Positions 48,108 through 51,229 of a DNA stretch of 64,000 bases are shown here, one piece after another. This DNA comes from Minisyncoccota bacterium (GTDB lineage Bacteria > Patescibacteriota > Minisyncoccia > Phycocordibacterales > UBA918). Below the pieces are notes generated by a model. The model saw nothing but the letters and a program-made list of their open reading frames with translations. It was not told the origin of the DNA and did no database searches. Each line of letters begins with the position of its first letter. The stretch's first letter is position 1. Made by a program: the position numbers and the translations under genes. The stretch spans positions 1,334 to 65,333 of the forward strand of contig JAIPIB010000003.1 in assembly GCA_021734905.1 (NCBI GenBank), read 5' to 3'.

Positions 48108-51100
48108 TTATTTTCTTTTAATCACCCACACTACCCCATTATCTGCATCCACCTCGACAAGGTCGCCGTCTTTGAGGACTTGCGTGGCTATTTTTGTGCC
48201 CACCACACAGGGTATCCCGAGCTCACGGGAAACTATTGCAGCGTGACACACCACCCCGCCTTCATCGGTCACGATTCCTGAACACTTTTTCATTGCAGGG
48301 ACATAGTCTGGTGACGTTGCATACGTGATCATAATGTCACCTTCAGCAACATGAGCGAGATCTGCTTTTACAAGTACCATCTTCACTCTCCCCTGTACCC
48401 TTCCCGTTGATGCTGATGCCCCTTTAATTTCTTCAGTGTCACTCACTTCCAGTGATGCAAGTTGTATCCCAAATTCTTTAAGCATCTCTTCCGTTACCGC
48501 TGTGGGAGAAAAATGGGTATTCCCCTGTATTGTAAGGAGTCCACATCCGCTACTACGACGTTCTATTTCTGCAATCTCTTCTGGCGAAAGTGTTTCTCCT
48601 CTATATGCCTCTTCGGGGGTCATGAGGTGTGCTATCTGCCCAAGATTTGGAAGTGTTCGTGTGATGTATTCGAGATACACCCTATCACCCTCATCTGAGT
48701 ATTCCTGTGTCTCCTTGCGCACCTTGAGAGCTTTCACACGCAAATCCTCTGGCATACCCTCCCTGTCAGGAATGACAAAAATATATGCCATCGGCCCCCA
48801 CCACCGCATGTAGTGGGTATAGAATGATTTCAAATCTCCTGACGATGAGATATGCTTCTCTCCATTCAAATATGGAAGAAGTTCTTTCCAGTGTGTATAA
48901 AAATCTTCAATGACAGTATCGAGAATAGAAGGATTATCAATAATCCCTTTCACAATACGGTCAAAGATAGTCTTGAGTTCATCGAGGTCGTAGTACACAT
49001 CGAGAACCCCTCGCTCGTTACGCACAAAAAGCATGTTCTTGATATTGGTGTCGTGAATATACTCATCAAAACAATCTCTGTTTGATTCATTCCAAACATG
49101 AGCATAAAACATCGAATGCTCGCGACTCATGTATTTTGAAAGAACAATTTCTTTTTCCTCCGCTCTCTTCAACACCCGCACCACCCCATTATCCGCATCT
49201 ACCTCGACAAGGTCGCCGTCTTTGAAGGTTTTTGTTCCAAATTTTGTACCAATAACACAAGGCTTTTTTAGTTCGCGCGCAACAATGGCTGCGTGACAAA
49301 GCAGACCACCTCCATCAGTCACAATGGCCCCCGCTTTCTTCATAAGTGGAACAAAATTTGGATCGGTCATTCCAGTGACAAGAATTTCACCCTCAGCAAT
49401 CTCTGCACTTTTGTAGTTTTTAATAACACGACATACACCTGTGACCTTACCTGGAAAAGCTGAATTTCCTTTCAGTACTCCTTCTCCAGAAGCTTTGCTC
49501 CATTCTGTCTCAATATCATCGGCAATTTGCTCATCGAGGATCTGATATCCATTTTCATCAGCATACACCCCGCATCTTTTGTATCGATTCTGTAAAACTT
49601 CTGGTGAGATTTTTGTTATTCCATTTACAATGTCGTATGCCTCGTAGCTGAGTGCAAACATGAGTTGTTCCTTCGTGTACCTGTCCTTAATATCATCAAT
49701 AACACGCATTATGATTGCATCAATATCGAGAAAAAGTGTTTCAGAATAACGGCGGGCATCTTCAAATTCCCTAAAGATGACTTGCTCTTCTTTCCCCGAA
49801 AGAAAATTTGAAGCAGTCTTAGAAGCAACCTGACATGCAGTATAAAAATCATAAAGCTTTTTCAGCTCATTAAGATGATCAAAAAAATTCGCCGCATCCA
49901 GATTTTTTGACATCTCACGTATTGCATCTGCAGTATCTTTAAATTTTTGAATCCAGGTCGTCCTAAAAATCTCATCTTTTGCTCTTCCGGCTAGATACAA
50001 TCCAAGCTCTTCATATTCATTTGAAGGCAGATATGCTGTCGCTGCACCGTCATGATATGAAATATATACGAAGCTTAAATTCTTTCCAAAAAAATCATTG
50101 AAAGTCTTGAAATACCCGTTTGCCGCAATCGAGTAATGAAGCAGAGAAAAAGGACCAGCCCAGTCAATCTGACAATCTGTTAGCTTGAGTTTCTTGACAA
50201 TGTCCGTATCTGCCAAATTACTGTTAGACTCAGAAATGTCTGAAAGGGTCGTAATCGGCCGACTCTGCACGATGTAGAACTTCCCCGCCCGCCCACCTTC
50301 GGCATTCGGACATGCCTCATACGCCCATTCAATGTCACAGGGAAAACCGTAGTGATTCTCTATGTGTAAAATAAGCTCTGATAGTTCAAGAATTTGTGAC
50401 TCGGTAAGTACCTGTGACGATGCCTTTGGCTCAGGGATTGTTTGCCACTCGTTTCCCCCCGCTTCACCGACTCTATAGAGGGCACGTGTCTGTGTGCTCA
50501 CGTTGATATCAATAATCTCTCGTGGACTCTTCCCCACGACATAGCTATCGGGAGTGACTTGTCCGGAGACAATGGCTTCACCGAGACCAAAACCCGCTTC
50601 GATGATGAGCTGGTTTCTGTCTTCGGTGACCGGATGCACTGAGAAGGTAATGCCAGAGACTTCACTCTCCACCATTTTCTGCACCACCACCGCAACTGAT
50701 ATTTTAGAATCGTGGAGTCCTTGTTCAAATCGATAGAAGATTGCCGAGGGGTGAAGAGTGATGCCCAACAGCGCTGTACGTTCTCAAGGAGTGTTGCTCC
50801 GGTTGTATTGAGAAAACTATCGAGTTGTCCTGCCCACGCCGCGCTCGCAGAGTCCTCTGCAGTTGCACTTGATCGGACAGCGACGAATGGAGTATTGAGA
50901 CTTGCAAATGAGGTGTTGACGAGGAGGGCAATATCTTCTGGCATTTTTGCCTCAAGAATGAGTTTCTGGATTGTCTCTGAAGCATACTCAGTCGTGTGCA
51001 TTGCTTTTGTATCAACACCGTGGAGAATTGAGTCAATTTCCACATTGAGGTCTGTCTCTTCAAGGAAACGCTCAAAAGCGCTTGAGAGCACAACAAAACC

Positions 51101-51229
51101 AGGGGGGACGGGGATTCCTGCTTGGGTCATTTCTCCAAGGGAGGCGCCTTTACCGCCCGCAATTCCTGCGTCGTGTCTGCCTAGCTCCCCGAATACTCGT
51201 ATGAGTTCCATAGGCTCAAATTGTATCAC
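48108..51229 (-). pseudogene. PEP-utilising enzyme (PPDK_N ATP-grasp domain + two tandem helical/swivel-His mobile-domain modules), interrupted by a frameshift near 50745-50752
   Basis: ORF 50498..51229 encodes the ATP-grasp N-terminus (GGKGASLGEM...VAVRSSATAEDS...CWASLFT). ORF 48108..50768 continues in another frame (AIFYRFEQGLHD...) and carries two PEP-utilisers motifs (TDGGGLLCHAAIVARELKKPCVIG and [24 protein letters not shown]). The junction lies at a CCCC homopolymer. Confidence 0.6.

Follow-up and report, generated by a model that had tools for sequence, protein, structure and literature searches.

A probable inactivated or split member of a modular family of RPH-related dikinases from Patescibacteria and DPANN archaea

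In this study we analyse a stretch of 64,000 nucleotides (hereafter the window) of contig JAIPIB010000003.1, which belongs to a metagenome-assembled genome (MAG) of a Minisyncoccota bacterium. The subject is a locus on its minus strand (51229..48108) that is occupied by two overlapping open reading frames (ORFs), ORF1 (51229..50498) and ORF2 (50768..48108). On the whole, the evidence makes it probable that the gene at this locus was inactivated, or at least split, in recent times and that it belongs to a large family of modular dikinases of small molecules that are related to rifampin phosphotransferase (RPH) and occur in the ultra-small Patescibacteria and DPANN archaea. The gene consists of one PPDK_N ATP-grasp domain followed by two modules, each with a helical domain of ~230 aa and a His swivel, and it is interrupted within the ATP-grasp by a single-base deletion. 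The deletion is most likely a genuine and recent inactivating mutation in the sampled population, and, judged from the sequence, it most likely abolishes ATP-dependent charging by the window protein.

With one base restored, the whole gene (48108..51211, minus strand, as for all parts given below) encodes 1034 aa, running from an ATG at 51211 to the stop codon TAA at 48108-48110 and comprising the ATP-grasp, module 1 and module 2. This ATG is probably the real start of ORF1, as the predicted N-terminus agrees with that of P0001, the closest relative among the matches listed (MELIRVF in the window, MELMRVF in P0001). P0001, encoded at locus L001, is intact, has three modules and is 78% identical to the reconstruction across the 1034 aa. 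The Pfam search divides PPDK_N between the two frames, with profile positions 3-150 in ORF1 and 148-319 in ORF2 (E 1e-41 and 1e-46). As it stands, ORF1 (50498..51211) holds 155 in-frame residues of the N-terminal ATP-grasp half and then 82 out-of-frame codons; the C-terminal half (50256..50742; AIFYRFEQ ... DIEWA ... IVQSRPITTL) is read in the frame of ORF2. The module 1 middle domain (49506..50255) is mostly helical, acceptor-binding-like and marked in the family alignment by the motif E-x-A-R-[KR]-Y-S-E. It is followed by swivel 1 (49155..49505), a phosphohistidine carrier of the Pfam PEP-utilizers type with its His codon at 49295-49293 and the motif TDGGGLLCHAAIV. The module 2 middle domain (48456..49154), an old paralogue of that of module 1, is followed by swivel 2 (48111..48455; Pfam match at ORF2 residues 808-878, His codon at 48245-48243). 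Both swivels carry the catalytic His motif T/S-x-x-G-G-x-x-x-H (TDGGGLLCH in swivel 1) and lie C-terminal to the acceptor domain.

Beyond PPDK_N, Pfam finds in ORF2 the two PEP-utilizers domains (E 9e-51) and no further domain, and neither ORF has a match to PEP-utilizers_C, the phosphoenolpyruvate (PEP)/pyruvate TIM barrel. The initial annotation had described PPDK_N with two helical/His-swivel modules and no barrel, a layout closer to RPH than to PpsA; the profile search and the His motifs bear this out, and the domain order is that of RPH. The top NCBIfam matches (NF005057 and TIGR01418) and the top PDB sequence match (8a8e, a PEP synthase) would instead point to a PEP synthase, i.e. pyruvate, water dikinase (PpsA). 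Those scores, however, stay under the curated cut-offs (567.4 against 598 and 533.6 against 739.75) and only the ATP-grasp and swivel contribute to them, and with the barrel missing and the domains in RPH order this identity is scarcely credible. In the NCBI annotation, where the MAG stands under Candidatus Paceibacterota (Pacebacteria) with locus tags K9M10_021xx, the ORF1 product is a 237-aa hypothetical protein (K9M10_02160), and module 2 alone is given as a 340-aa hypothetical protein starting with MSREHS (K9M10_02150, 48111-49130), so that no product is annotated for the middle of the gene. The module-2-only annotation is an artefact of the frameshift; by inference, the locus tag K9M10_02155, skipped at NCBI, marks a pseudogene.

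The frameshift site (50743..50751) reads CCCC (50748-50751), TC, GG (50744-50745) and C, and is one base short compared with all relatives. The break falls inside the invariant motif FTPRAIFYR, where CWASLFTPRAIFYRFE is read in each of the 21 relatives that were aligned to the reconstruction. At this place the closest relative has TTC ACA CCA CGC GCT ATC and the window has TTC ACC CCT CGG -CA ATC. The sequence would most simply be repaired by one G missing at CGG GCA (50743-50745), giving P-R-A. A shift had been noticed before and placed at the CCCC run, ~5 bases away. The shift itself is real, but that run is not the best place for it: an extra C there yields P-S-A and loses the invariant Arg to Ser, while a restored G keeps P-R-A, and we therefore place the lesion at CGG GCA. 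The deletion results in a 237-aa fragment and an ORF of 855/886 aa. Among 81 family ATP-grasp genes, a common frame for the N- and C-terminal motifs is seen in 78, and the window gene alone has them in different frames. As a side observation, the ATP-grasp of one relative (L040, 7992-8762) has an in-frame stop between its N-terminal and its C-terminal motifs, reflecting either another pseudogene or the use of a variant genetic code by that lineage of Patescibacteria.

After the shift, the frame of ORF1 stays open for 82 codons (50498-50742). In long window genes, open runs of at least 82 codons occur at ~1.5% of positions when the same off-frame is read (P ~0.015), and when the same deletion was simulated in 75 relatives, a stop followed after a median of 19 codons. 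This unusually long open frame, together with a CCCC run on which tRNA-Pro could re-pair, would fit a programmed -1 frameshift by P-site slippage of tRNA-Pro on A CCC CU, with a product reading ...FTPSAIFYR.... Such a product, however, has Ser for the invariant Arg; a heptamer of the form X XXY YYZ is missing from the sequence, folding of the 106 nt downstream is not stronger than that of shuffled sequences (z +0.75), Rfam gives no match, and the shift is not conserved among the relatives. Programmed slippage is hence very improbable, and the 82-codon open wrong frame is probably due to chance.

More weight attaches to the question whether the missing G is artefactual, so that the gene of the organism is intact (CGGGCA). 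The sequence is derived from a MAG, the bases around the shift form a short stretch rich in G and C (CCCCTCGGC), all other invariant residues are intact, and this is the sole broken gene noticed in the 64 kb, where the suspicious overlapping ORF pairs revealed no other split gene or frameshift. Against an error stands first a Logan contig from run SRR12088351, a separately made assembly, which matches the window at 100% identity across 12.8 kb, the shift site included. Moreover, NCBI has the broken 237-aa product from two MAGs (MCF7815545.1 and MCF7857267.1), located on two contigs. These two observations make a random assembly error unlikely. In addition, a G run of two bases is an atypical context for a homopolymer error, and an intact near-identical allele was found neither among the listed matches from a search of 5.8 billion protein clusters nor by an exact-pattern scan of JGI metagenome contigs; a protein-based scan gave no relative closer than ~60%. 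We accordingly consider a sequencing or assembly error unlikely as a whole. Among the three options that the initial annotation had left side by side for the frameshift, a fresh pseudogene or split gene is thus the best reading, sequencing error is unlikely and slippage finds no support.

The lesion also looks recent, since all family-invariant ATP-grasp residues are kept and a 9-aa insert is shared with an intact relative. The kept residues include the nucleotide-binding ones of the family (the Lys of GGKG, the Arg/Thr of VAVRSSATAED and the acidic/Gln Mg ligands), all present in the reconstruction although the frame is broken. The insert, CPNAEGGRA, is encoded by a G+C-rich, in-frame stretch of 27 nt (50286-50312) and lies in the ATP-grasp hairpin between the DIEWA and IVQSRP strands. 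It is missing from 184 of 192 family members, is near-identical in the intact P0015, and has counterparts of similar length in L007 and L069. We considered the insert as a second lesion and rejected this, as the intact P0015 has it too.

Based on the reconstructed protein, we then obtain an overall view of the family. As a query it matches at least 7997 proteins at E<=1e-10, with lengths clustering near 660, 1020, 1370 and 1500-1800 aa, and each of the best 120 matches has one ATP-grasp followed by 1-4 swivels. A scan of GTDB with one genome per species shows at least 568 stretches encoding a relative, of which 80 loci were kept for analysis. Numerous lineages of Patescibacteria are represented in these 80 loci, as are DPANN archaea (Woesearchaeota, Nanoarchaeota and Iainarchaeum). 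Among them 77 are complete, and the ORF with the ATP-grasp carries no module in 25 cases, one in 35, two in 10, three in 3, four in 3 and five in 1. The loci with no fused module have a stand-alone ATP-grasp of ~320 aa and then 1-6 stand-alone genes of the [middle + swivel] type on the same strand, and arrays mixing fused and stand-alone modules are also present. We define the family by two features, a highly conserved ATP-grasp with the motifs KGASLGEM and FTPRAIFYR and an identity of at least 60%, and behind it at least one [middle + swivel] unit ending in KDGDxVEVDAxxGxV. The window gene fits this definition, with 66-90% identity to 21 family ATP-grasps and two modules that each have the tail motif. 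The ATP-grasps of the 80 loci are 60-77% identical to that of the window in Patescibacteria and DPANN alike, and such high identity between bacterial and archaeal sequences suggests cross-domain transfer. Since loci throughout the family carry 1-5 modules, the second swivel of the window gene is neither an assembly artefact, as had been envisaged for the case that relatives lacked it, nor a private duplication; second swivels are widespread in relatives. Apart from this, some proteins of 550-590 aa (P0130, P0133, P0134 and others) have two stretches of the middle domain, and there may accordingly be modules in which the acceptor domain is doubled ahead of one swivel. We did not come across a description of this multi-module family in the literature available to us.

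The two modules of the window gene are old paralogues, shuffled among the family members. Their swivels are 44% identical as proteins, and blastp detects the swivels only, with no similarity between the middle domains. Nevertheless, profiles of both module types align end to end, and hhalign aligns the middle domains alone, with the swivels removed, over 211 columns at a probability of 98.1% (E 6.7e-14) and ~10% identity. Such values do not agree with a recent tandem duplication, and the recent origin proposed earlier for the duplicated module gives way to an ancient divergence. In other family proteins among the best 120 matches, the two module types of the window sit at differing positions. 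The AF2 models built on family alignments reach pLDDT 90.1 and pTM 0.86 for module 1, and pLDDT 94.0 and pTM 0.87 for module 2. In structural comparison, both modules match RPH best. For module 1, a Foldseek search against PDB returns six RPH-Lm entries on top (E 1e-11 to 1e-9, ~400 aligned columns), before the matches to swivels only. The family profiles align to RPH-Lm residues 697-866, which are the last ~70 residues of the RIF-binding domain plus the swivel.

Both modules being intact and modelled with high confidence, the locus might also be a functional split gene, in which an 855-aa product starting from the ATG at 50675 is charged in trans by an ATP-grasp encoded elsewhere. Stand-alone ATP-grasp genes and module genes are common in the family, and two-component relatives act in trans (PMC12167813). 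However, the natural split in the family is at the boundary of ATP-grasp and module (~residue 320) and not within the ATP-grasp, and the 855-aa product would keep a useless half of this domain. There is also no second ATP-grasp within the 64-kb window and no good ribosome-binding context obvious at 50675. A working split gene is thus a minor possibility, and a recently broken gene is the reading we retain.

A further feature of the locus is a tract of 43 nt at the end of each swivel, located at 49183..49225 for swivel 1, where it encodes (F)KDGDLVEVDADNGVV, and at 48133..48175 for swivel 2. The two copies are identical at 41 of the 43 positions. This identity had been reported by the initial annotation and is confirmed, whereas the coordinates it gave (48126-48168 and 49187-49229) match at only 7 of 43 positions in register. 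Outside the tract the DNA of the two swivels is only ~45-75% identical. Where both copies encode the same residue, the codons are identical in 12 of 15 cases in the tract and in 5 of 16 near the catalytic His, and the former has a binomial P of 0.003 relative to the between-locus baseline of 0.417. The fractions for tract and His region are 0.80 and 0.31 in the window, 0.77 and 0.32 in L001, and 0.87 and 0.24 in L023. Actually, the seven swivel ends of the window and L001 loci all have near-identical codons in the tract and scrambled codons around the His. The tract, i.e. the last ~43 nt of every swivel, is therefore homogenised in the lineage of the window. Of the two origins suggested before for the repeat, gene conversion agrees with the codon identity of the tract in this lineage, and recent duplication does not agree with the divergence of the modules.

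Across 36 multi-swivel loci, the tract-specific excess of codon identity is not significant (paired P 0.28), and tract and His region lie above the between-locus baseline to the same degree (P 5e-4 each), which is what shared codon usage would produce. The idea that the tract is a DNA or RNA element with a function throughout the family was also considered and rejected, as synonymous sites vary freely across 133 swivel ends and the excess is not significant family-wide. Separately, the last 15 codons of the swivels lean throughout the family (L001, L004-L083) to the G-ending codons GTG, GCG, GGG and TTG, the fraction of G at third positions being 0.27 in the swivel tail, 0.19 in whole genes and 0.16 around the His.

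The same tract marks a difference in module content between the window gene and its closest relative. The window gene is without the third module of the relative, no remnant of module 3 being found in the window, and the crossover or junction lies within the 43-nt tract. Window positions 48341-48129 match swivel 2 of L001 at 80.8%, and positions 48228-47749 match the end of its swivel 3 together with the downstream gene at 86.5%. Sites that distinguish swivel 2 from swivel 3 of L001 favour swivel 2 by 57:11 from -150 to +14 nt of the His codon. They then count 4:9 from +15 to +47 and 10:1 from +48 to +80, are absent in the shared tract, and turn to 2:13 beyond +114. Swivel 2 of the window is thus a mosaic of swivels 2 and 3 of the relative, and its tract is the crossover zone, swivel-2-like upstream and swivel-3-like downstream. 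In agreement, the protein tail of the window gene is VVWVIKRK*, compared with VVRIIERK* after module 3 of L001, and the linker LKRAEEKE follows swivel 1 in the window and swivel 2 in L001. At L001, the region upstream of the three-module gene (L001 781-3760 for this region) holds two [middle + swivel] genes that stand alone, of 470 and 345 aa, together with a gene weakly matching LMWPc (low-molecular-weight phosphatase); they are missing at the window locus, where a NYN-domain gene and topA are found instead.

Several points weigh against the interpretation given here. The Logan contig and the NCBI MAGs may come from one sample, which makes a systematic error possible, and the 855-aa remainder could act in trans if another ATP-grasp is encoded outside the window. 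The difference in module 3 may be either a loss here or a gain in the relative. Family-wide, homogenisation of the tract is inseparable from shared genomic codon usage, so it is a lineage effect and no rule of the family. That one ATP-grasp would charge several modules is something we infer from the architecture, and experimental work on any member of the family was not found in the literature searched.

Among the neighbouring genes, the closest is located 10 nt downstream (47268..48098, minus strand) and encodes a 276-aa protein resembling the histidine phosphatase superfamily (motifs FFIRHSKAT and FGHENYM; His_Phos_1 E 0.0017, under the curated cut-off). It is kept downstream of the gene in L001 (86.5% nucleotide identity, L001 7980-8460). 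With phmmer it is found only in L001 and weakly in L065, and a looser search shows small His_Phos-like genes beside the arrays in L085, L061, L033 and L024. From its sequence and position, the 276-aa protein may be a functional partner, acting as a phosphatase of phospho-His or of the product. We do not regard it as a universal partner, since the association is recurrent without being universal and is suggestive only. The other neighbours in the window (46399-47259 and 51317-56077) are dprA (DNA_processg_A), the gene of the NYN-domain protein, topA and the gene of a RelA/SpoT-HD-TGS protein, all of them housekeeping genes without a consistent theme; a RelA/SpoT neighbourhood is also seen near the relative in L084.

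The window copy being broken, it probably matters little in physiological terms. As a locus it is an ordinary pseudogene or split gene, and what makes it of interest is its family, in which RPH-type dikinases occur in a widespread multi-module form. The locus leads to thousands of proteins in hundreds of Patescibacteria and DPANN species, which are apparently unstudied. Their genes are routinely mislabelled as phosphoenolpyruvate synthase, and in this MAG the one gene appears as several unrelated hypothetical proteins. The organisms of both groups have a minimal metabolism and depend on hosts. As a tentative view, which we offer as a possibility rather than as an expectation, Patescibacteria and DPANN may share, probably by cross-domain transfer, an ATP-driven phosphotransfer hub. 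In such a hub a near-invariant ATP-grasp would charge one to six or more swappable acceptor/phospho-His cassettes, each for a different molecule of the host or environment. The cassettes would be gained, lost and reshuffled by recombination in the swivel sequence, and the His-phosphatase-like neighbours would reset or antagonise the system. A conserved multi-substrate kinase of this kind could bear on the capture, activation or detoxification of metabolites in these organisms.

By analogy with the biochemistry of RPH, PpsA and pyruvate phosphate dikinase (PPDK), the N-terminal ATP-grasp would bind ATP and hand its beta-phosphate to the His of a swivel. The swivel would then swing onto the helical domain directly upstream and phosphorylate the acceptor bound there, with AMP and Pi released. 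In the window gene one ATP-grasp would serve two modules; in relatives it would act on 1-5 modules in cis, or in trans on as many as six that are encoded by separate genes downstream. Carrier His and acceptor domain are separate for every module, and the acceptor domains have diverged, so that the substrate presumably differs from module to module. To our knowledge, RPH-type small-molecule dikinases are single-acceptor enzymes, being either fused (RPH, PigC) or two-component (HpeHI, CreHI, PpsAB).

The nearest known system is the rifampicin-inactivating RPH (RPH-Lm, PDB 5HV1/5FBS/5FBT/5FBU), with mechanism and domain order as published (PMC4844700). The two have in common the order of ATP-grasp, helical acceptor domain and C-terminal His swivel, as well as the swivel motif T-x-x-G-G-x-x-x-H, and the conversion of ATP to AMP, Pi and phospho-acceptor is presumed to be the same in the window family. 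However, RPH has one module, while the window gene has two and the relatives up to five. The middle domain is ~230 aa here against ~430 aa in RPH, with no detectable RIF-binding blocks, and the scores for RPH proper are far below the cut-offs (NF041857 425.8 bits against 999, NF000283 314 against 1700). Unlike RPH, the window family is confined to Patescibacteria and DPANN MAGs in the retrieved loci. In HpeHI, CreHI and the phenylphosphate synthase PpsAB, ATP-grasp and [acceptor + swivel] are separable, with HpeI as the ATP-grasp and HpeH as the acceptor plus swivel acting in trans (PMC12167813). The same organisation is seen in 25 of the 77 complete relatives. Those systems have one acceptor component per ATP-grasp, whereas the window family has several modules per ATP-grasp, fused or in an operon; the window gene itself is a fusion, with its frameshift inside the ATP-grasp.

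PpsA and PPDK have homologous PPDK_N and PEP-utilizers domains and the same swivelling phospho-His mechanism, but their swivel is central and followed by the PEP/pyruvate TIM barrel that the window gene is without. The prodigiosin ligases PigC, RedH and HapC belong to the same superfamily with an RPH-like layout. They have a single module and a biosynthetic gene cluster, which is not present at the window, and their NCBIfam models score 368-401 bits against cut-offs of 1300-1350. The window gene would work like an RPH-type dikinase, but it is neither RPH nor PpsA. In the phosphotransferase system (PTS), which is compared here by analogy only, the phosphoryl donor is PEP instead of ATP and the acceptor proteins are unrelated, and the window family has no membrane components. 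Nevertheless, in Enzyme I, HPr and Enzymes II one phosphoryl donor likewise feeds acceptor-specific units via phospho-His carriers, and the N-terminal domain of Enzyme I is a homologue of the swivel. If the hub proposed above is true, these organisms of minimal metabolism would have in it a functional counterpart to the PTS that is soluble and powered by ATP.

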